Shown here: positions 41,086 through 52,367 of the stretch, in pieces
Position numbering within the stretch: the first letter of the stretch is position 1
How the letters are laid out: every line of letters starts with the position of its first letter
NCBI GenBank assembly: GCA_045643205.1
Contig: JAZUKI010000003.1
Span: forward strand, 160,001 to 224,000
DNA: 64,000 nt
From: Clostridia bacterium
GTDB lineage: Bacteria > Bacillota > Clostridia > TANB77 > CAG-508
Reading direction: 5' to 3'
The notes under the pieces: model-generated
Databases searched by the model: none
Seen by the model: only the letters and a program-made list of their open reading frames with translations
What the model was told of the DNA's origin: nothing
Position numbers and translations under genes: made by a program

Positions 41086-41838
41086 TTATTCAATCAATGA
41101 ATTTTCTCCAGTCTTATAATCTATTTTTACTCTAGGTTGCACATTGTAGCAGTATACATTAAAACAAATTGCCTTACCATTATCTTCAACAGACTTAGCC
41201 TCAATCTGCACCCCAGATGCTATGGGATTGTTTCCCTCATAATGAGGAGTAACACGATATAGCACATGATTATTACTTGATCTAACATAGTTGGCAACTT
41301 TGTTTTCAAAAGGCAACATTCCCTCTGTATTTAAGTAGCGAGTGCCAGTAATTAAATTTTTCTCATTTGCATTTTCACCAGTCAACTGATATCCAATTAA
41401 ATGACAACGATTAAACAAATACTTTCCATCAATAAAATCATACTTTGAAATTCTCCAACCAGAAGGCTTAATCATACCAATAGATTCACGTTCAGCAGTC
41501 GGCATTAAGTTCTTGCCAATATTAGCAAAAGCAACGCCACATCTTCCAAGAGAATCAAGTTCACTATATTTTTCAAAAGATTCAGTAGTCATCATCGAAG
41601 AATCAAAATTTGGAACATTATTATTTAATATAACATAAGGTTTATCAGTATATGCTGGTATTAATTTTAAATCAAGAGTTGTTGCATAGTTAACTTTAGT
41701 AGCTTCATCGAAAGCATTATCTGCTTCAGAAGTCATGGAAGATGGGAAAAATTTCAAACAAATAAACATTACTAAGATTGCAATAACACATTCAAAAAAT
41801 TGAGTTATTAAACTTCGTGTTGTACGCTTTCTAGCCAT
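41086..41838 (-). CDS. Membrane-anchored DNA/RNA non-specific endonuclease (EndA/DNA-entry type)
   Basis: LDSLGRC, PSGW, NRCHLIG, NLITGT..LN..GM..FE, YRVTP. Confidence 0.9.
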   Translation of the reverse strand: MARKRTTRSLITQFFECVIAILVMFICLKFFPSSMTSEADNAFDEATKVNYATTLDLKLIPAYTDKPYVILNNNVPNFDSSMMTTESFEKYSELDSLGRCGVAFANIGKNLMPTAERESIGMIKPSGWRISKYDFIDGKYLFNRCHLIGYQLTGENANEKNLITGTRYLNTEGMLPFENKVANYVRSSNNHVLYRVTPHYEGNNPIASGVQIEAKSVEDNGKAICFNVYCYNVQPRVKIDYKTGENSLIE

Positions 41839-42861: not shown

Positions 42862-45303
42862 GTGAGGAATACAATGGATAATGATTCTGAATTAAAAGAA
42901 GATGAGATTGAATTTGATAAAAAAATTTCACGTTATACATTTAGTGAAGATAAAGATTTTAGAATTTATAAACAATTAAGAGTTGAAGCAGGAGACAATC
43001 CTAGATTAATAGAAATACTTTGGAAAAAAATTATTTTAAAATATTATTGTTCTCCTAGTTTTGTAATTGAAAATAGAGATGACGTTACTTTATTTAAAGA
43101 ATTTTCTGAATTAATTAATGATGTTAGTAAAGATGGCTTTATGTATGGATTAAGTAGCAAAATACCATTAGAGGAACTTTTTGAAAAAATATCAGACATA
43201 CCTGAAACAGCTGTAACAATATTTTCCTTGATTTCTCCCAATACTACTATTGTTGAAAAATACAAAGAGTTTCAAGATAAATATATAGATAAATTATTTG
43301 AATTAGCTAAAGATACAAAAAACTCTAAAGAAAATTTGTGTAGAATGTGGAAATCAATATGTAGTGATGAATTAAAATTAGACAAGTTAAATGAAGTTTT
43401 AGCATATACAGGTATAGCAAACAGTCCTGAGACAATGAGTAAAATACAACAAACAATACAGGTTAACAAAGATTTCTTATATATGATAACTCCTAAATTT
43501 TTAGATGCAAATTATATTAATAGCTTTTCTGTTGAACAATTAATATATATAGTTTCATTTCCTGAGTTCCAAAAAGACTTGGTAAAATTAGATAGTAATG
43601 AACTAGGAAATATGATGAAGTTAGTAAATGAAATATATCCCGAAAATGAAGAATGGAAGGAACCATTAAATAAAATATTACAAAATGTTAAAGATAAAAA
43701 GTTTGGAGATTTATTAAAAGGCAATGAATTAAGTTATGATAATGAATTAGTTAGTGTTTTATCAAATAAGAATTATTTTGAAATTTACAGAAAAGAAGAT
43801 TTAGATAGTATAGATAACAAAAAGAAAGAGGCAACTTTATTAATAAAAAATGGAAATCAAAAACTTCTTTTAGAAAAATACCCGGAAATTGCTAGATTAG
43901 AATTAATAGAACAAATGAAATTAATGGCTTGTGAAAATATTCTTGGATTATCATTAGATGAGGCTAAAAACCTAGTATTAAAATATGGAGAAGATATAGA
44001 TAATATTGGAAATGAATATAGCGAATTATTTTTAAAAAATTATGTTAATGCATTGAAAGCAATTATAAATGAAGATAAAAGTGAAAAATTAGCTAAATTA
44101 CTTGATTATGGAATTACACCAAAAGAAAAAATTAAAGATTCATATACGATTGAAAGCATGCTAAAATTTACATATGGGAAAAAATATGATGTGGCAAATG
44201 TAGATTTTAATTCCTTAAGGTCATGTAAAGTTAAAGGCTTAGAAGGAATTGAAGTACTTGATGCAGGAGTGGATTTTTCTATGATTATTTCTAGTGTTGG
44301 AGCATACAGAGTAAATGAAGATGAAAACTATTATGATAGTTGGAATAGGCCTTCTTTAAGTTCTGATATTATTAGTACATCATTTATTAGAAATGATATG
44401 ATGGGAAGAGCAAATTGCCCAAGACTATATTTTGGATTTAATAATATGAGTGCAAGTGCACTTGATTTATCTGGAAGTGCAGATTTGTTTTCAAAATCAG
44501 ATAGTATTCAATCTAAGGCGGTGAGGGCATTAGCATTCTATACTCCTGATACTCAAATTGGTCAAACAGGTAGAAAAAAGTATTCTAATGGTCAAATTAT
44601 CAGTGCTTATAACGAAATGGACTATAAGAGAATTCAAGATGGAGAGAGAAAGCAACCTGATTATATTGTTGTTTTTGGAAGCTATGGTAATATTGATGAG
44701 AATCAAAGTGGACAAATGCTTATGGATGGTAATAAATTACCTGATGTATCTGTTTCTAAAAAAGAAAGAGCTCAAAATATAAAAAAAGCAATATCTGATT
44801 TTGAAAGAGCAACAGGAAAAAAATTACCTGTTGTGTTCGTAGATTTAGGCAAAGTATATAGAAATGAAGAAAAGATAATAGGTCAATTAAGAGAAGAGTA
44901 TAAAATTAATCCAAGTGAAGAAAACAAAAGAAAATTAATAAAAAGAATTAAAAATTTTAATTCTTATAAGCATTATAAATTACCAATTGAATTTTCAGAA
45001 GAAGAAATTGGGAAATTTGATAAAATTGAAGATAATGTTTCTGACTTTGAATTGACTGATAAAACAATAGAAGATATTAAATTGTTTGATTTCGAAGAAT
45101 TCAGACAAGAAAAGAATAATTATAGGATTAAAAGACTAGAAAAAATAAATTCTCAAGAAAATATTTCTAACAAAAAAATTAGCCTTAGAAAACTTATTCC
45201 TATTGCATCATCAAGAGATAATGCATATAGAATAGGTAATAATCCATTTAAAGCAATTAGAGATTTTATAAAGCAAAGAAACTCAAATGATAAGGAAAGA
45301 TGA
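42862..45303 (+). CDS. Large hypothetical protein with possible C-terminal enzymatic (ART-like) domain
   Basis: 813 aa; helical N-terminal part; ISTSFI, YNE, QPDYIVVF motifs; ends DKER. Confidence 0.65.
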   Translation: MRNTMDNDSELKEDEIEFDKKISRYTFSEDKDFRIYKQLRVEAGDNPRLIEILWKKIILKYYCSPSFVIENRDDVTLFKEFSELINDVSKDGFMYGLSSKIPLEELFEKISDIPETAVTIFSLISPNTTIVEKYKEFQDKYIDKLFELAKDTKNSKENLCRMWKSICSDELKLDKLNEVLAYTGIANSPETMSKIQQTIQVNKDFLYMITPKFLDANYINSFSVEQLIYIVSFPEFQKDLVKLDSNELGNMMKLVNEIYPENEEWKEPLNKILQNVKDKKFGDLLKGNELSYDNELVSVLSNKNYFEIYRKEDLDSIDNKKKEATLLIKNGNQKLLLEKYPEIARLELIEQMKLMACENILGLSLDEAKNLVLKYGEDIDNIGNEYSELFLKNYVNALKAIINEDKSEKLAKLLDYGITPKEKIKDSYTIESMLKFTYGKKYDVANVDFNSLRSCKVKGLEGIEVLDAGVDFSMIISSVGAYRVNEDENYYDSWNRPSLSSDIISTSFIRNDMMGRANCPRLYFGFNNMSASALDLSGSADLFSKSDSIQSKAVRALAFYTPDTQIGQTGRKKYSNGQIISAYNEMDYKRIQDGERKQPDYIVVFGSYGNIDENQSGQMLMDGNKLPDVSVSKKERAQNIKKAISDFERATGKKLPVVFVDLGKVYRNEEKIIGQLREEYKINPSEENKRKLIKRIKNFNSYKHYKLPIEFSEEEIGKFDKIEDNVSDFELTDKTIEDIKLFDFEEFRQEKNNYRIKRLEKINSQENISNKKISLRKLIPIASSRDNAYRIGNNPFKAIRDFIKQRNSNDKER

Positions 45304-45767
45304 TAGAAATTATGACATTAAGTAATTATTATAGAAGGGCTATTACAGAAGTACTAGAAATTTTAAAAAATGTTGAAATTGATGAATATAATAAAATACC
45401 TCAAAAAATTATTACCTTTTTAGAAGAACAGAAAGATCCAAATTATATCTTTACTATAAAGCCGAATCAGAATTTTGAAGATCTTAAAATAATGGATGAA
45501 ACTAAAGGCTTTTTAAGTTTAATTTATTATAGCTACTTATGTAATTCCGATGAGGAAAGAAAGTTATATTTACTAACTTTAAACCATAATGAAAAGAAAT
45601 TCCAAGATGAATTAAGAAAACAATATGATTATAATAAGCTTTTTAAGGATAAAACCGAAAAAAAAGAGAATTTAATAGTTGATAATACTACACAATTGGT
45701 TAAAGATAAAGAAAATTTTTTTATAAAATTTATAAATTATATAAAAAAAATATTTAAAAGACACTAA
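45300..45767 (+). CDS. Hypothetical protein
   Basis: A.TEVLEIL...KIP motif; ATGA overlap with upstream gene; downstream terminator. Confidence 0.7.
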   Translation: MIEIMTLSNYYRRAITEVLEILKNVEIDEYNKIPQKIITFLEEQKDPNYIFTIKPNQNFEDLKIMDETKGFLSLIYYSYLCNSDEERKLYLLTLNHNEKKFQDELRKQYDYNKLFKDKTEKKENLIVDNTTQLVKDKENFFIKFINYIKKIFKRH

Positions 45768-45930
45768 GATATTTTAGTAATAAATGTAAATTAAAGTAAA
45801 GGGTAAGTAATATTTAATTTACTCACCCTTTTACTGACTAACAATAGCGTTCTTTTTTTCTAAAGGTTTGTAAAAATCGATTAATTGACATATAATTACA
45901 GCCAAATAGAGTGATAGTGAAAGGAGCCAT

Positions 45931-46836
45931 ATGGAAAAGTCTAAAGTATATTTTACAAAAATAATTAGCGATGATGCAATTGTAAGAATTTATGATGAGA
46001 TGATGAAAAATGAAAATATCCAATTAGAGGGAAATGTAGCAGTAAAGTTACACTCTGGAGAAAAAGGAAATCAAAATTATATTCATCCTGAGATGGTAAA
46101 GAAAATAGTTGAACATGTTAATGGTACAGTTGTTGAATGTAACACAGCATACGATGGAGCTAGAAATTCAACTAAAAAGCACAAAGAATTATTAGATGAA
46201 CATGGATGGACAAAATATTTTACGGTAGATTTGATGGATGAGAATCCAGAAGAGGATATTGAATTAGAAATACCAAATGGAAAAGTTATAAAAAAAGATA
46301 TAGTTGGAGCTCATTTATTAAATTATGATTCAATGCTTGTATTATCACATTTTAAAGGACATCCAATGGGTGGTTATGGTGGAGCATTAAAGCAATTATC
46401 AATTGGTTGTGCATCAACTGCTGGAAAAGCATATATACATTCAGCAGGGGTAACAGAAGATCAATTTGAAGTATGGAGTAATCTACCTGAGCAAGATTTG
46501 TTTCTAGAATCAATGGCTGACTCTGCATCATGTGTTACTAAACTTTTCAGAGAAAGAAAAGGAATAGTATTTATAAATATTATGATTAACATGAGTGTTG
46601 ATTGTGATTGTTGTGAAAATGCTGAAGATCCATGTATAAGAGATATTGGAATAATGGCATCAACTGATCCAGTGGCAATAGATCAAGCATGTATAGATAT
46701 GATAGAGAATTCAGATGATCTAGGCAAAGAGCATTTTATGGAGAGAGTAAATTCATTAAATGGTAAACATACTATAGATACAGCATATGAATTAGGCACT
46801 GGAAATAAAGAATACGAGTTAATTAAGATAGAATAA
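45931..46836 (+). CDS. DUF362 Fe-S protein
   Basis: VAVKLHSGE, SHFKGH..GG.GGALK, DCDC, STDPVAIDQA. Confidence 0.88.
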   Translation: MEKSKVYFTKIISDDAIVRIYDEMMKNENIQLEGNVAVKLHSGEKGNQNYIHPEMVKKIVEHVNGTVVECNTAYDGARNSTKKHKELLDEHGWTKYFTVDLMDENPEEDIELEIPNGKVIKKDIVGAHLLNYDSMLVLSHFKGHPMGGYGGALKQLSIGCASTAGKAYIHSAGVTEDQFEVWSNLPEQDLFLESMADSASCVTKLFRERKGIVFINIMINMSVDCDCCENAEDPCIRDIGIMASTDPVAIDQACIDMIENSDDLGKEHFMERVNSLNGKHTIDTAYELGTGNKEYELIKIE

Positions 46837-46873
46837 ACAAACATATTATTTAATTAATAGTTAGGAGTTTGCA

Positions 46874-47152
46874 ATGAGTACATTTGAATCTTTTATTTGG
46901 TGTATAATTATTATAGGATTTATGGCAAAATGGAATAAAGGAAATGATGAATCGAAATATGGATCAAAAAGAAAAAAATATAAATCAAAGGATAATAAGT
47001 CAGAATATTCAGATGAAGAAATAGAAAAATATAAAAAAATTTACGGTTTAGATGATGAAGAAGTAAGAGAGATAAAAAACGGAAATCATGATCCGTGGGA
47101 CTTTGAAGAAACAGATGCAACAGAAGAAAGTGATTATTATAACAAGGATTAA
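46874..47152 (+). CDS. Small hypothetical membrane protein
   Basis: AGGAG RBS, N-terminal hydrophobic segment, DPWDFEE tail. Confidence 0.6.
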   Translation: MSTFESFIWCIIIIGFMAKWNKGNDESKYGSKRKKYKSKDNKSEYSDEEIEKYKKIYGLDDEEVREIKNGNHDPWDFEETDATEESDYYNKD

Positions 47153-47242
47153 AATTGAAAAAATTACATAAATATAATATAATTAATTTATTCAAATGGC
47201 ATACATCATAGGAAAAATATTAATTTAGAGAGGTATAAATTT

Positions 47243-48670
47243 ATGAGTGGTGTTTATGAAAATAGAAAGACAATTCGAGATTTAAACAATTTAATTAGAA
47301 TGTATAAGCCATTAAAAGATGTTGAATATTATTTTGTTTTAGGATATCCAAGATCTGATATAGGAAAAGGAACTTTAGTAGCTCAATTATTAGCAAATGT
47401 AAAAGATTCAGATGCAATAAAATATGATGGGCTATTAAATACAAATGAAAATGGAAGACATACAGCAGTAGGACATGATGATTTCGGAGTATACGAAAAA
47501 TTTAATGAAGGAAAAAGATGGGGAAGAGAACATTATTTATTAGGGGGAGAACTTTATAGAGATTTTATTAATAGTTATGGAGAAAATGAAAATCTTCAAA
47601 TAAATCCTCATATGTCTTTATATGTTGAATATGTGATACATAAAATGTGGAATGATATAGGAAAGCCTAAGAAATTATTTATAGAAGTAGGAGGACTAAT
47701 TTCAGATCCTGAAGTTGATCCTATAATTACTCCAATAATACAAAGATTAACTTCTGAAGGTTTAGCAAAAGTAATATTACTTACTGAATCATCATATAAT
47801 GGAGAATATATTAAATCTAAAATAGTCCAAGAAGGGGTAAATAAATTCTTAGAAAGAAGAATTGAGCCTTGGATAGTATTTGTAAGAGATGCAAAAGATA
47901 TGGGAGAAATATCTACATCTCAAAGAATAGAGAATGAAAGAATTATAATGAACAAAATTATTGAAAACTTTAATTTTAATTTAAAATTATTAGTTTCAAT
48001 TCCATACTTTGATGAATTAAAACAATATACAGAGTATATTAGAAAAAGATTTTGTCCAATTATTAATGAAGTTGATAAAAAGGAAATAGTTCTTGCAACT
48101 AAAAATGAATCAAAAATTGCGGATTATAAATTATATCTAGGTGATGAATATAATATTAAAACAACAAAAGATTATGATTACGATATAGATATAGTAGAAG
48201 GAACAACTTCAGCAGAAGAAAATGCAATTGCAAAAGCAAGAGCATGGTGTAAAGTTACTGGAAAAATAACAATTGGAGATGATACAGGATTCTTTATACA
48301 TGAACTAAATGGAGAGCCAGGAGTTGCAACAAGAAGATGGGGAGGACAACTTCCAGAAAATGCAACAAATGAAGATTTTTGGCAATTCTTAAAAATAAAG
48401 ACAAAGAATTTAAAAGATTATACTTGTCATTTTGAACAAAATATAGCAATTGCTTATCCAAGTGGAAATGTTGAATTGATAAAATCAATTAATCAAGGTA
48501 TTTTAAATAAAGAGAATCTAAAAAAAGAATATAATGGAACAGGTTATCCACTAGGAGCAGTTTTTGAATCTTTAAATAGAAATAAAAATTGGGATGAAAT
48601 GACGGATGAAGAGAAAAAAGAATTTGATAAAAATTTAATTAAAGAATTAAAAGAAAAATTATCAAAATAA
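47243..48670 (+). CDS. Fusion of a CTP-synthase amidoligase-like domain with a HAM1/ITPase-like domain
   Basis: SDIGKG, KYDGLLN, DFGVYEKF, QINPH, IEVGG..SD.E (PyrG-N); ATKN..K, ENA..KA, DDTG, NGEPGV (HAM1). Confidence 0.8.
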   Translation: MSGVYENRKTIRDLNNLIRMYKPLKDVEYYFVLGYPRSDIGKGTLVAQLLANVKDSDAIKYDGLLNTNENGRHTAVGHDDFGVYEKFNEGKRWGREHYLLGGELYRDFINSYGENENLQINPHMSLYVEYVIHKMWNDIGKPKKLFIEVGGLISDPEVDPIITPIIQRLTSEGLAKVILLTESSYNGEYIKSKIVQEGVNKFLERRIEPWIVFVRDAKDMGEISTSQRIENERIIMNKIIENFNFNLKLLVSIPYFDELKQYTEYIRKRFCPIINEVDKKEIVLATKNESKIADYKLYLGDEYNIKTTKDYDYDIDIVEGTTSAEENAIAKARAWCKVTGKITIGDDTGFFIHELNGEPGVATRRWGGQLPENATNEDFWQFLKIKTKNLKDYTCHFEQNIAIAYPSGNVELIKSINQGILNKENLKKEYNGTGYPLGAVFESLNRNKNWDEMTDEEKKEFDKNLIKELKEKLSK

Positions 48671-48805
48671 TATGTGAAATATATTAATTATATTAATTAT
48701 ATATTTACTCAAAATTTATGACTATATTTTTGAGTTAGGCTGATTGAAGTATTAATGAGAATAATATGTTATACATTTAATAATCACAACAAAGGAGGAA
48801 ATATC

Positions 48806-49351
48806 ATGTTACAATCATTTATTGTTACTGGAGCATCAGCTTCAGGAAAATCAACTTTAATTAATGAAGCTAGAAAAAATTATATTTATCTTCCAACTCA
48901 CATGACTCGTGATTTAAGAAAAAATGAAGTAAATGGGATTGATGCAATTTTCATTAATGAGGAACAATTTATTAAAAACTTTAATGAAGGTATGTATTTA
49001 GAAGATTCTTTGGATTTTGCATTTGTTCATAGTTTAAGAAACTACTATGGTTCACCATCTATGTGGATTGAAAAACTTAAAGAAGATGGATATTGTGCTT
49101 CACCAGTTTCTATTGTCATTGCAGAGAAGATTGTTAGTCTTTGTACTAATTTATGTTGGGTACATTTATATTGTCCTAATGAAATCCGGTATGAAAGATT
49201 AATTAACAGAGGTATTTCTCAAGAAGAAGCTAGTAGAAGAATGAATACTGGTGATTCAAGAAACATACCTCAAAAAGCAAATTTAGTTTTAGATACTTCA
49301 AAAAACAGCCCGGTAGAGATTCTTTCTAAGATTAATAATTATAAAAAGTAA
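48806..49351 (+). CDS. Guanylate kinase-like NMP kinase
   Basis: GASASGKS, TR..R.NE.NG.D..F, YYG, RL..RG; AGGAGG before ATG at 48806. Confidence 0.8.
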   Translation: MLQSFIVTGASASGKSTLINEARKNYIYLPTHMTRDLRKNEVNGIDAIFINEEQFIKNFNEGMYLEDSLDFAFVHSLRNYYGSPSMWIEKLKEDGYCASPVSIVIAEKIVSLCTNLCWVHLYCPNEIRYERLINRGISQEEASRRMNTGDSRNIPQKANLVLDTSKNSPVEILSKINNYKK

Positions 49352-49365
49352 TCTCAAACCAAAAC

Positions 49366-49397
49366 AAAAAAGACTTTCATTTTTGAAAGTCTTTTTT
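49366..49397. terminator. Bidirectional terminator for the kinase gene and tRNA
   Basis: aaaaaaGACTTTCA-tttt-TGAAAGTCtttttt. Confidence 0.8.
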
Positions 49398-49403
49398 GTT
49401 GTT

Positions 49404-49479
49404 TGGTTGCGGGGGTAAGACTCGAACTTACGACCTCAGGGTTATGAGCCCTGCGAGCTGCCAACTGCTCCACCCCGCG
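49404..49479 (-). tRNA. tRNA-fMet (CAT), initiator
   Basis: CGCGGGGTGGAGCAGTTGGCAGCTCGCAGGGCTCATAACCCTGAGGTCGTAAGTTCGAGTCTTACCCCCGCAACCA; C1:A72 mismatch, three G-C anticodon-stem pairs, encoded CCA. Confidence 0.97.
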
Positions 49480-49521
49480 ATATATAAATGATTAAGTCAA
49501 TCTCTTCAATCGACAAGCACT

Positions 49522-49550
49522 AGTATACACTCATTCGTTGTATTTGTCAA
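49522..49550 (-). promoter_or_regulatory. tRNA promoter
   Basis: TTGACA-17-TATACT on the minus strand. Confidence 0.75.
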
Positions 49551-49651
49551 CACTATTTACGCACTAAATACTATGAAAAGAGCCTGCTTTTGAAGTGAAC
49601 TTCATTTAGTTCATTTAAAGCAGACTCTTTCTTTGTTTATATCATCAACAA

Positions 49652-50257
49652 TTATTGTTGTGGTGGTACGTTTCCTGGATTTTGTGGTTGTTGTGGTTGT
49701 GGTGCTTGATATTGTTGGAATGTACCTTGTGGGTTAACTGGTTGTGCAGGTTGTTGATAGTTTTGTTGTGGTTGGTATGGTGGTTGATATGGTGCTTGAT
49801 ATTGTGGTTGGTAAGAAATACCCCATGATTTTCCAACATATCTTGCATTTCCCCATGCTAACATTGGATAGAATATAAGTGGTAATAAGATTAAACCAAC
49901 TGCAAAACCACCTGATTTTCCATATGATCTAGCCATGTAAATTCCTAAGATGATAAGAAATACAATTACACCGAAAGGAATTAAGTTTATAAACCACATA
50001 GCTTTTGGAATACCGCAAATTTCTAGTAAACAAATTTCATTGTGTACAGGTATAAGTCCATCTATACCTTCTTTTCCAGCCTTTTTTAAAATTGACCAAT
50101 AAGAAGCGTATAAAAGTACGATTGAAATTAATGCAAAAATCATTATAAAAATAATTAGTCCCCAAAATGCTGCTAATATATTTCCTACAAAAGCAGATGA
50201 ATATGATGGAAATGATGAGTATGTTGAGTATGTTGAATATAAAGTTAATAAATCCAT
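49652..50257 (-). CDS. DUF5684-like membrane protein with P/Q-rich tail
   Basis: W.I.KKAG..G...LIP..N and GKSGGFAVGLILL..IF...LA motifs. Confidence 0.8.
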   Translation of the reverse strand: MDLLTLYSTYSTYSSFPSYSSAFVGNILAAFWGLIIFIMIFALISIVLLYASYWSILKKAGKEGIDGLIPVHNEICLLEICGIPKAMWFINLIPFGVIVFLIILGIYMARSYGKSGGFAVGLILLPLIFYPMLAWGNARYVGKSWGISYQPQYQAPYQPPYQPQQNYQQPAQPVNPQGTFQQYQAPQPQQPQNPGNVPPQQ

Positions 50258-50375
50258 TTGATTTTCCTCCCTTATTAATAATGATATAATTATAAGATAT
50301 TTAGGCTAAAAATTCAATAATTAATTTGGGAATTAGTTTGAAATTTAAACAACTCTGTGTTATAAACACATTACC

Positions 50376-52367
50376 ATGGGTAAGAAATTATTAATTACAG
50401 AAAAACCTTCAGTTGCAATGGAATTTTCGAAGGTCATAGGTGAAAACTTTAATAGAAGTAATGGATACTTAGAATCTCAAAACTGGATTATTACTTGGTG
50501 CGTAGGTCATTTGGTTACAATGAGTTACCCAGAAAAGTATGATGAAAAACTTAAGTTTTGGCGATTAGATACATTACCTTTTATTCCTACTGAGTGGAAA
50601 TATGAAGTTATTGAGAATGTTCAAAATCAATTTAATGTTGTTCAAAAACTTATGCAAAGAGAAGACCTTGATGTTATATATAATGCAGGGGACTCTGGAA
50701 GAGAAGGAGAATATATTCAACGTTTGGTTCAAATGATGGCAAAGCCAAATCCTAAGGCTGAACGTAAGAGAGTTTGGATTGATTCTCAAACTGAGGAAGA
50801 AATAAAGCGTGGAATCGCTGAGGCGAAAGATAATTCAGAATATGATAGTCTTGCCGACAGCGCTTATTTGCGTGCAAAAGAAGATTACTTAATTGGAATT
50901 AATTTTAGTAGAATGCTTTCTATCATTTATGGTAGAAAACTTGCTCAAGAAATAAATCAAGAGAAGGCATCTATTTCTGTAGGTCGTGTTATGACATGTG
51001 TTTTAGGAATGGTTGTTGAACGCGAAAGAGAAATAAGAAACTTTAAAAAGACTCCTTATTTCAAACTTGAGGCTTGTTTCGACGGATTTAAAGCAGAGTG
51101 GAGAGATAGCGAAAAATCACGTTTTCACGAATCACCAAAGTTATATAATGATAATGGATTCAAGTCTGAAGATGATGTGAAAGAATTTATTTTATCATTA
51201 AAAGGTAAAGAGGCAATTGTTGAAGAAATAAAGAAAAGCAGTCAAAAAGAGAAAGCGCCTTTATTGTTCAACTTGGCTGAAATTCAAAATGAGTGTTCTA
51301 GAAGGTTTAAGATTTCTCCAGATGAAACTCTTGAAGTTATTCAAAATTTATATGAGAAGAAACTTGTAACCTATCCAAGAACAGATGCTAGAGTTCTATC
51401 AACAGCTGTAGCTAAAGTAATTAAGAATAATTTGAATGGTATTGCTAAGGGATATAAAAATGAAGAAGTTCAGACTCTAATTAAGCATATGTCAGAAAGA
51501 AAATATTCTTTAGATATAGTTAAAACAAAGTATGTTGATGATAAGAAAATAACAGACCACTATGCAATTATTCCAACAGGACAAGGTTTTGAAAACTTTG
51601 AAAAGTTACCTCAACTTCACAAAGATGTGTATGATTTGATTGTTCATAGATTTTTAGCTATATTTTTCCCACCTGCAGCATTTAATAAACTTAATATTAC
51701 TATGGATATTGATGGGAAAAAGTTCTTTGCTAATGCAAGAGAATGCACAGATGAGGGTTACATGGAGGCTTGGAAAAAGTCTGCTAAGCCAAAAAAAGAT
51801 GAGTCAGAGGAAAAAAATGAGAAAACAGTGGATTCTGGAACTCAAAATCAAGATTCTGATGAACAAAATTCAAATTCTGAATATGATGAGGAAAATCAAA
51901 ATAATATTTTAAATATTAACTTGAAGAAGGGACAAAAGTACTCTGTGTGCAATTATGAAATAAAACAGTCTGAAACAACCCCTCCAAATCGATATAATTC
52001 AGGATCAATGATACTTGCTATGGAAAATGCGGGTAAATTAATAGAAGATGAGGAACTTAGGGAGCAAATTAAGTCTGCTGGTATTGGAACTAGTGCTACA
52101 AGAGGTGGAATTATAGCAAAATTGGATAAAATTCAATATATTGCGATAAATGGTAAGACTCAAATCATAACTCCTACACAAAAAGGTGAGTATATATATG
52201 ATATTGTTAAAATTGCTATGCCAGATCTTCTAAATCCAGAGTTGACAGCAAGCTGGGAAAAAGGCCTAGATATGGTTGCTAAAAAGGAGATTCAGCCTGA
52301 TGTTTTTATGAATAAATTGACCGATTATATCAACAAGAAATTTGACAAATTGGTGATAAAAAGGTAA
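50376..52367 (+). CDS. topB: DNA topoisomerase III (type IA)
   Basis: EKPSVA, GHL, D..REGE, SVGRV, LYE....TYPRTD, HYAIIPT, GIGT.ATR. Confidence 0.88.
   Translation: MGKKLLITEKPSVAMEFSKVIGENFNRSNGYLESQNWIITWCVGHLVTMSYPEKYDEKLKFWRLDTLPFIPTEWKYEVIENVQNQFNVVQKLMQREDLDVIYNAGDSGREGEYIQRLVQMMAKPNPKAERKRVWIDSQTEEEIKRGIAEAKDNSEYDSLADSAYLRAKEDYLIGINFSRMLSIIYGRKLAQEINQEKASISVGRVMTCVLGMVVEREREIRNFKKTPYFKLEACFDGFKAEWRDSEKSRFHESPKLYNDNGFKSEDDVKEFILSLKGKEAIVEEIKKSSQKEKAPLLFNLAEIQNECSRRFKISPDETLEVIQNLYEKKLVTYPRTDARVLSTAVAKVIKNNLNGIAKGYKNEEVQTLIKHMSERKYSLDIVKTKYVDDKKITDHYAIIPTGQGFENFEKLPQLHKDVYDLIVHRFLAIFFPPAAFNKLNITMDIDGKKFFANARECTDEGYMEAWKKSAKPKKDESEEKNEKTVDSGTQNQDSDEQNSNSEYDEENQNNILNINLKKGQKYSVCNYEIKQSETTPPNRYNSGSMILAMENAGKLIEDEELREQIKSAGIGTSATRGGIIAKLDKIQYIAINGKTQIITPTQKGEYIYDIVKIAMPDLLNPELTASWEKGLDMVAKKEIQPDVFMNKLTDYINKKFDKLVIKR

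Follow-up and report, generated by a model that had tools for sequence, protein, structure and literature searches.

The analysed stretch of DNA from a Clostridia bacterium (the window, 64,000 nucleotides, bases 160001-224000 of contig 3 of the host genome, G000) holds a two-gene module: one gene encodes a CTP-synthase-type amidoligase domain fused to a Ham1-type nucleoside triphosphate (NTP) pyrophosphatase domain, and the other a nucleoside monophosphate (NMP) kinase resembling guanylate kinase (Gmk). The host is a small gut bacterium with a genome of 1.008 Mb in 10 contigs (completeness rating 100%, G+C content ~28%). Together, the fusion and its dedicated kinase represent a conserved, uncharacterised enzyme architecture that is built from known kinds of enzymes. 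In the best explanation available, which we hold with roughly even confidence, the fusion would act as an ammonia-dependent amidoligase that converts uridine triphosphate (UTP) into cytidine triphosphate (CTP) within an accessory module for nucleotide salvage and pool cleaning, and this module would have originated among Saccharibacteria and other ultra-small symbionts. The parts of the module are arranged in the window as follows.

47243..48670, + strand: fusion gene, amidoligase and Ham1 domains, 475 residues (open reading frame without internal stop, Pfam, AF2 model, family search)
47243..47314, + strand: N-terminal helical extension, residues 1-24 (model helices 3-7 and 9-21; CTP synthase alignments begin at model residue 24-27)
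47315..48073, + strand: CTP-synthase-type amidoligase (ALase) domain, residues 25-277, without glutaminase partner (fold Z 24.7 to 1s1m_A, profile search, invariant residues)
48080..48667, + strand: Ham1/RdgB-type NTP pyrophosphatase domain, residues 280-475 (Pfam, NCBIfam, alignment, fold; N-terminal catalytic motifs kept, SHR replaced)
48806..49351, + strand: Gmk-like NMP kinase gene, 181 residues (Pfam, NCBIfam, homologue starts, AGGAGG before the ATG)

Pfam assigns residues 80-268 of the fusion protein to CTP_synth_N (PF06418; 38.8 bits, E 9e-10, cut-off 26.1) and residues 282-461 to Ham1p_like (PF01725; 92.1 bits, E 5e-26, cut-off 22.5); these were the only two matches, and no class I glutamine amidotransferase domain was found. 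The Ham1p_like match stops at position 173 of the 186 profile positions, leaving the SHR end unmatched. NCBIfam, searched at E 0.1, returned Ham1-type models only, with scores far short of the cut-off in every case; PyrG models were not among them. An AF2 model of the fusion built from 26 family members (predicted local distance difference test score 88.9, predicted template modelling score 0.87) retrieved CTP synthases and Ham1/RdgB proteins at the top ranks in Foldseek. In this model, residues 25-276 superpose on residues 1-267 of E. coli CTP synthase (1s1m_A) with Z 24.7 and a root-mean-square deviation of 2.3 Å over 233 aligned residues, and residues 281-474 on RdgB with inosine triphosphate (ITP; 2q16_B) with Z 20.6 and 2.2 Å over 186. 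The sequence identity of the amidoligase domain to solved CTP synthases amounts to 17-24%. The extension of 24 residues in front of it is conserved across the family (M1 and K9 nearly invariant) and has no counterpart in CTP synthases. The original prediction, made from the letters of the window alone, had described a PyrG-type amidoligase without glutaminase fused to a Ham1 domain, and had named the lack of a PyrG fold and a singleton or chimeric fusion as grounds for dismissal. The Pfam matches and both superpositions bear out the described architecture, the PyrG fold of the N-terminal domain included. As 59 of the 66 related protein clusters contain both Pfam domains and 15 genome loci carry the full fusion, the open reading frame is a real, conserved two-domain fusion and neither a chimera nor a singleton.

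With the CTP synthase PyrG (E. coli, 1s1m; fly, 7dpt) the N-terminal domain shares the amidoligase fold and the full complement of residues for catalysis and for contacts to UTP and the ATP phosphates. Ten N-domains, combined in a profile, align to residues 3-265 of the E. coli enzyme (E 2.4e-12), and matches of family profiles to CTP synthase range from E 5e-13 to 2e-12. The PyrG motifs recognised in the original prediction align to the E. coli motifs in the order given there, with gaps that shorten the PGTMSPxQHGEVFV region. In the available excerpt of PMC8325340, the catalytic residues of fly CTP synthase are Lys16, Lys38, Asp70 and Glu145, equivalent to Lys18, Lys40, Asp72 and Glu140 of the E. 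coli enzyme, with Gly143; Asp40 contacts the uracil, Asp152 and Glu154 the ribose, and Lys192-Thr193-Lys194 the triphosphate, and His55 (E. coli His57) is placed at the ammonia tunnel's exit. The E. coli numbers of the UTP contacts were transferred in this analysis from the fly numbering. The catalytic set corresponds to K42 (E. coli K18), K60 (K40), D80 (D72), E148 (E140) and G150/G151 (G142/G143) of the fusion, of which K42, K60, D80, E148 and G151 are invariant in 26 full-length family members; the catalytic core is still invariant in 16 sequences that include stand-alone relatives of 260-316 residues. The UTP contacts correspond to D62 (D42, hydrogen bond to uracil), D155/E157 (D147/E149, ribose) and K191-T192-K/R193 (K187-T188-K189, triphosphate), and the gate His to H73 (H57); R215 is equivalent to R211. 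Every catalytic or UTP-contacting residue named in the excerpt of PMC8325340 aligns to an invariant or near-invariant position of the family, as seen in the 26 full-length members and the ten N-domains. Since these residues are invariant or nearly so, the chemistry of CTP synthases is predicted to be preserved, and the N-terminal domain very likely binds a ribonucleoside triphosphate with a uracil-like edge. The difference to PyrG lies in what surrounds this core. The ammonia-tunnel segment (fly residues 50-58) is shortened by gaps of 4, 4, 5 and 3 residues in and around it, with the gate His retained, and reads LNTNxNGRHT in the close family, where it is strongly conserved with a nearly invariant Arg beside the gate His. 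Ham1 takes the place of the glutamine amidotransferase domain, and the coupling to a glutaminase is lost.

The C-terminal domain shares its fold with RdgB, Ham1 and ITPA (2q16, 4bnq and 2j4e; Z 17-20.6), with a Pfam score well above the cut-off. Aligned to S. aureus Ham1 (4bnq), it keeps the N-terminal catalytic motifs (T-x-N-x-x-K, E...N-A-x-x-K and D-D-T/S-G), and the catalytic residues N288, K291, E319 and D347 are at least 90% conserved in the family. In contrast to these enzymes, SHR is replaced by F-D-K and FGYDPIF by GYPLGAVF (GYPLG for FGYDP), in agreement with the motifs that the original prediction had listed as kept, missing and exchanged. The domain also remains below all NCBIfam equivalog cut-offs, reaching 73.7 bits against the Ham1 equivalog TIGR00042 (cut-off 145.35). 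SHR is the signature of the Ham1 specificity pocket, in which Arg178 reads the 6-keto group (PMC5075207, in the excerpt available). As this signature is replaced, an altered base preference can fairly be inferred for the Ham1 domain of the fusion. The host genome contains three Ham1-family matches, and the fused domain is one of several Ham1 paralogues. The canonical Ham1 of the host is encoded on contig 1. A third, divergent paralogue, on contig 4 (62688-63233, L004), scores 55 bits; here, too, the Pfam match stops at profile position 173, and SHR may be missing as well. The Saccharibacteria genomes G083-G085 and G088 (0.7-1.0 Mb) hold 3 to 5 Ham1-family matches each, a striking expansion for a house-cleaning enzyme.

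The gene downstream of the fusion encodes the divergent Gmk-like kinase announced in the original prediction, with 36 bits against Guanylate_kin (PF00625, cut-off 25.2) and 55.6 bits against the Gmk equivalog TIGR03263 (cut-off 160.45). It belongs to a small family of 42 clusters that has contigs in common with the fusion family. The P-loop G-A-S-A-S-G-K-S/T is invariant, and the T-x-x-T-R-x-x-R-x-x-E stretch, a Glu and the YYG(T/S)P motif are shared with Gmk (2j41, 2an9, 1ex7); lid arginines are kept as well. The Ser/Thr, two Arg, Glu and Tyr-Gly positions of Gmk, which we take to be those that bind GMP, are retained in the family. Unlike the Gmk structures, the kinase has a 6-residue insertion after the Glu, Ala, Gly or Ser for the Tyr of D-Y-x-F, and S-P-V for the acidic E-I-E. 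An ordinary Gmk (113-166 bits) is also present in four of the five fusion genomes tested, which makes the linked kinase a specialised, additional paralogue. The host genome has two weak matches to the guanylate kinase family, of 37 and 36 bits. A separate cassette was observed in the Saccharibacteria metagenome-assembled genome (MAG) G088 (L095, 780-3083), where same-strand, overlapping frames encode proteins of 151 and 227 residues, a Gmk-like kinase of 196 residues and a Ham1-like protein of 197 residues; a Gmk-like kinase and a Ham1 paralogue hence come together again in Saccharibacteria, here without the amidoligase.

An exhaustive search for relatives of the fusion yielded seven representatives at 50% identity that span both domains and about fifteen stand-alone N-domain proteins. 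A search of ESM Atlas gave only generic clusters named "CTP synthase N-terminus domain-containing protein". The 15 full-fusion loci in species-representative genomes (L009-L023) comprise three Bacillota MAGs, nine genomes labelled Saccharibacteria, Nanosynbacter or TM7, one Rothia-labelled MAG, one Nomurabacteria locus that is cut by the contig end, and one Paceibacterota. The fusion family has its centre in Saccharibacteria and other ultra-small symbionts. When open reading frames of at least 60 residues were scanned in all 79 loci, 14 of the 15 fusion loci had a member of the kinase family next to the fusion in the same orientation, and none of the 64 other loci had one, so the conserved link to the kinase, which the original prediction had named as a test, does exist. 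The gene order varies, the kinase being located downstream in the window, L009, L010 and L022, and upstream with overlapping frames in L011-L013; such overlaps of kinase and fusion reading frames occur in Saccharibacteria. The linkage of the parts is also supported by a Nanoarchaeota MAG (L075), in which the Ham1 variant is fused to a C-terminal P-loop kinase, and by a Nanoarchaeia MAG (L067), in which a stand-alone amidoligase, an unknown open reading frame of 301 residues and the Ham1 variant lie in one row.

The Ham1 variant occurs alone in about 35 Saccharibacteria loci, with ~61% identity to the C-terminal domain of the window. The first residues of this shorter protein repeat the start of the kinase P-loop region and are followed by the Ham1 domain. 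We read this form as the probable product of an in-frame deletion that took out the entire amidoligase domain and the greater part of the kinase, after which the Ham1 variant would have been retained on its own. Stand-alone Ham1 variants with 47-52% identity were also seen in gut Alphaproteobacteria MAGs (L066, L069 and L070), with no match to the CTP synthase N-domain. Nucleotide-pool cleaning is the recurring gene company of the module parts: in a Saccharibacteria MAG (L062) a stand-alone amidoligase is flanked by NUDIX, GreA, a YjjX-like NTPase_I-T and another NUDIX gene, one or two NUDIX genes lie just downstream in the Bacillota loci (NUDIX is found in L009, L010 and L011), and L012 contains a further Ham1 paralogue. 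A soil Saccharimonadales MAG (L065, 1890-5597) features a nucleotide-cleaning cluster with a YjjX-like NTPase_I-T identified by Pfam and, judged from sequence starts only, a NUDIX-like frame, a second Ham1-like frame and the Ham1 variant. Farther afield, a distant stand-alone amidoligase relative (391 residues, 30% identity) is encoded in Micromonospora sp. NBC_01392 (L074, 3370-7414) between an epimerase/dehydratase-type protein and an AsnB-type glutamine amidotransferase, in what may be a biosynthetic gene cluster. In the PyrG-less Nanosynbacter sp. TM7-053 (L016, 1986-11261), a kinase remnant, the fusion and a dihydroorotate-dehydrogenase-like gene are located between a 16S rRNA gene with three tRNA genes and a 23S rRNA gene.

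As to the origin of the host copy, the fusion was found in 0 of 80 relatives of the host (same genus, family or order), whose matches are ordinary Ham1 genes and one canonical PyrG. In a quick maximum-likelihood tree (SH-aLRT support, midpoint root), the seven Bacillota rows form one clade (support 100) that is nested in a clade of 25 rows (support 99); the other named rows of the latter are Saccharibacteria, Nanosynbacter or TM7, except for one on a Rothia-labelled MAG. Because the Bacillota copies nest within the Saccharibacteria clade and the 80 relatives are devoid of the fusion, lateral acquisition by the host line is likely. Transfer from a Saccharibacteria-like source would be the simplest reading, its direction resting on the quick tree. 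The arrangement of tRNA-Met and topoisomerase genes next to the module recurs in the loci of four of six relatives, and the genes on the module side are not shared with them.

The distribution of canonical PyrG bears on the reaction to be expected. The fusion is the sole PF06418 match in the host genome, which encodes UMP kinase (PyrH), Cmk and Dut; no match for PurA, GuaA, Ndk or canonical PyrG was found in this genome, rated 100% complete. Seven of the 18 genomes with the amidoligase are devoid of canonical PyrG (G000, G084, G085, G086, G091, G093 and G095). Restricted to Saccharibacteria, PyrG is missing from 5 of 10 genomes with the amidoligase and present in 19 of 20 with the Ham1 variant only. 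An even sample of the Saccharibacteria order, which includes one unpublished genome (G154), gave a strong PyrG match in 185 of 201 genomes, the remaining 16 (~8%) being without. Two Nanosynbacter genomes (G084 and G085) contain UMP kinase (PyrH) and a single ADK-family gene, with no match to Cmk, and in G085 the linked kinase is broken. As PyrG and a Cmk match are missing and only the one ADK-family gene is present, the predicted amidoligase is the only visible route to CTP in both. The PyrG distribution and this lone route to CTP would favour a real CTP synthase activity with free ammonia.

Based on the folds, conserved residues, gene linkage and distribution observed, the following scheme is proposed for the substrates, the ammonia donor and the order of the three reactions. 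The N-terminal domain would represent a minimal CTP-synthase-type amidoligase with ATP and UTP (or a close relative of UTP) as ligands, which would phosphorylate the 4-oxygen and then exchange it for free ammonia, consistent with the missing glutaminase and the short tunnel segment. In the PyrG-less host genome, it would be the sole enzyme able to turn UTP into CTP. The C-terminal domain would serve as a Ham1-type NTP pyrophosphatase with intact catalytic residues and a pocket without the 6-keto-reading SHR, so that a nucleotide other than ITP or xanthosine triphosphate (XTP) is probably cleaned or processed. The kinase, finally, would be an NMP kinase derived from Gmk, with a remodelled site for the NMP, and would act on a monophosphate of the same pathway.

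Several observations weigh against this scheme. Both the amidoligase and canonical PyrG (332-430 bits) are encoded in 11 of the 18 genomes. The two closest Bacillota relatives belong to these 11, as does G098, a mixed MAG of 2.6 Mb that bears the label Rothia; this frequent coexistence leaves room for other substrates. The PyrG counts are, moreover, not independent, the genomes compared being related. Neither PyrG nor the fusion was found in 12 of 43 congeners, showing that the host lineage can live without any CTP synthase, and the host has Cmk. The low identity to CTP synthases (17-24%) and the missing NCBIfam PyrG match at E 0.1 speak of a divergence that could equally reflect a new substrate or the lost glutaminase interface. 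The kinase is dispensable: one Nanosynbacter group carries it in a frameshifted or truncated form, in L022 the gene is split, and the L023 genome lacks it. Finally, no reading explains an NTP pyrophosphatase fused to an NTP-making domain. Some narrower proposals were rejected: a simple replacement of PyrG as the whole story, due to the 11 genomes with both genes; the Ham1 variant as a dUTPase stand-in, due to Dut in the host genome and the Bacillota relatives; Ham1 and the kinase as a CTP-to-CDP bypass for missing Ndk, due to Ndk in the Saccharibacteria tested; and the kinase as the missing UMP kinase, due to the presence of PyrH.

Re-amination of oxo-nucleotides other than UTP is conceivable, albeit unlikely. 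The kinase would then lift a 6-oxopurine or deoxyuridine monophosphate, the amidoligase would convert ITP to ATP, XTP to GTP or dUTP to dCTP, and Ham1 would hold the non-canonical pool down, the module standing in for missing PurA, PurB and GuaA or repairing deaminated nucleotides. Two of the three parts, Gmk and Ham1, come from enzymes that read 6-oxopurines, and the kinase keeps the Ser/Thr, Arg, Arg, Glu and Tyr-Gly of Gmk. The N1-H/O6 edge of hypoxanthine is the same as the N3-H/O4 edge of uracil. The lack of a PurA or GuaA match in the host genome, the nucleotide-cleaning neighbours elsewhere (NUDIX in L009-L011, NUDIX and NTPase_I-T in L062, the Ham1 paralogue in L012) and the 11 of 18 genomes with PyrG, which suggest a role other than CTP synthesis, would fit as well. 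However, relatives without the module mostly also lack PurA (10/12) and GuaA (10/12), all UTP contacts of CTP synthase are kept, the ribose-binding Asp/Glu pair argues against deoxy substrates, and no purine-specific feature was found. Loss of the 6-keto-reading motif of Ham1 would, furthermore, be odd for a module centred on ITP and XTP, going by the excerpt of PMC5075207. Repair of deaminated purines is accordingly kept as a minority reading, the evidence pointing first to a CTP-synthase-like reaction on UTP. Quite unlikely in our judgement is a re-amination route at the triphosphate level, in which the kinase would lift the monophosphates IMP, XMP or UMP, the amidoligase would aminate the triphosphate with free ammonia, and Ham1 would police or trim the pool. 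If this held, symbionts without PurA, PurB and GuaA, and often without PyrG and Cmk, would interconvert scavenged nucleotides by a non-textbook pathway.

The synthesis of a modified pyrimidine appears decidedly improbable. An opened active site would accept another amine and form an N4-substituted CTP, Ham1 would trim the product to the monophosphate, and the dedicated kinase would handle it. Phage hypermodification follows a comparable logic of NTP pyrophosphatase, base modification and dedicated NMP kinase. The replacement of the tunnel segment by LNTNxNGRHT with its near-invariant Arg beside the gate His, the remodelling of both the Ham1 pocket and the NMP site of the kinase, and the biosynthetic-looking setting of the distant Micromonospora relative (epimerase/dehydratase, AsnB-type amidotransferase) are compatible with such a function. 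Yet the Arg-His pair is not kept in the wider family, the module has no conserved neighbour encoding an amine donor, carrier or transferase, and the surroundings are of housekeeping type, in one Nanosynbacter even between 16S and 23S rRNA genes. Phage relatives were found neither in IMG/VR (scanned with the amidoligase alignment) nor among GenBank phages (tblastn), which speaks against this reading and against a role in defence alike. As for the further inference of the original prediction, ATP-dependent amination of a nucleotide combined with a change of phosphorylation state is compatible with the conserved residues, whereas the suggested role in anti-phage defence, with Ham1 as a nucleotide sensor as in the Kongming system (KomA/KomB/KomC), is unsupported, and we give it very little credence. 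The Ham1 domain does superpose on KomB (9v0g_A, Z 16.7), and patchy distribution and lateral transfer are in line with a defence gene; however, RdgB-type enzymes fit better (Z 20.6), and the domain is closer to housekeeping enzymes and fused to an amidoligase. PADLOC (2023 copy, which may miss newer systems) gave no match for the fusion and a P-loop match of 12 bits (E 0.024) for the kinase, which is not significant. Neither a SIR2-type effector nor a deaminase, which accompany the HAM1 protein in Kongming, nor any other effector family was detected by Pfam among the neighbours scanned (37.5 to 59.6 kb). The catalytic residues of both domains are kept, and the module is found mainly in symbiont genomes of 0.6-1.2 Mb, beside housekeeping genes.

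The ammonia-dependent conversion of UTP to CTP would be of consequence for organisms of this kind. Saccharibacteria and other ultra-small symbionts cannot build nucleotides de novo and have pools to balance. An ammonia-dependent CTP synthase would fill the UTP-to-CTP gap in several cultivated or near-complete Nanosynbacter genomes and in the host; if another nucleotide is the substrate, the fusion would catalyse a new reaction for the CTP-synthase-type enzyme class. The probable lateral move into reduced gut Bacillota indicates a portable, selectable module. Full-text searches of the literature, which did not extend to subscription journals or supplementary files, brought up no publication that describes the fusion, or a CTP synthase devoid of glutaminase in these organisms. 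Where public records give the protein a name, it reads non-canonical purine NTP pyrophosphatase, XTP/dITP diphosphohydrolase, xanthosine triphosphate pyrophosphatase or hypothetical protein, so that the amidoligase half goes unnoticed.

The module is framed in the window by the following features.

47155..47183, + strand: promoter-like site, TTGAAA, 17 nt spacer, TATAAT (11/12 matches; ~60 nt upstream of the fusion start)
49363..49400, both strands: two-way terminator-like hairpin closing the gene pair (17 pairs and T-run, detected on both strands)
49404..49479, - strand: tRNA-Met(CAT), initiator type, boundary marker outside the module (abuts the hairpin)

In the AT-rich stretch, 21 promoter-like sites were found against 20.2 expected from shuffles, which makes the site at 47155..47183 weak evidence for a promoter. 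GAGAGG directly precedes the ATG of the fusion gene. For the kinase, the start is most likely the ATG at 48806 and not position 48755 (51 nt too far upstream), since homologues begin with MxxSFIVTGASASGKS and AGGAGG precedes the ATG at 48806; with this predicted start, the gap between the two genes is 135 nt. The terminator abutting an initiator tRNA, as described in the original prediction, is recovered in the hairpin and the tRNA gene on the opposite strand. In this tRNA, C1 and A72 are mismatched and three G-C pairs adjoin the anticodon loop, features which we take to be hallmarks of an initiator. Rfam, applied to 11 related loci and to 45700-50400 of the window (E up to 1) in the search for a riboswitch or leader, returned only tRNAs, rRNAs and one leader match at chance level. 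The surroundings of the module are housekeeping genes, its neighbours in the window including a Zn/Mn-type ABC transporter, SDR, a non-specific nuclease, DUF362, topoisomerase, and M23 and M16 peptidases. An open reading frame of 813 residues (42862-45303, + strand), with no significant family match, lies between the module and a gene for a DNA/RNA non-specific endonuclease located 5 kb upstream of the module (41086-41838, - strand).

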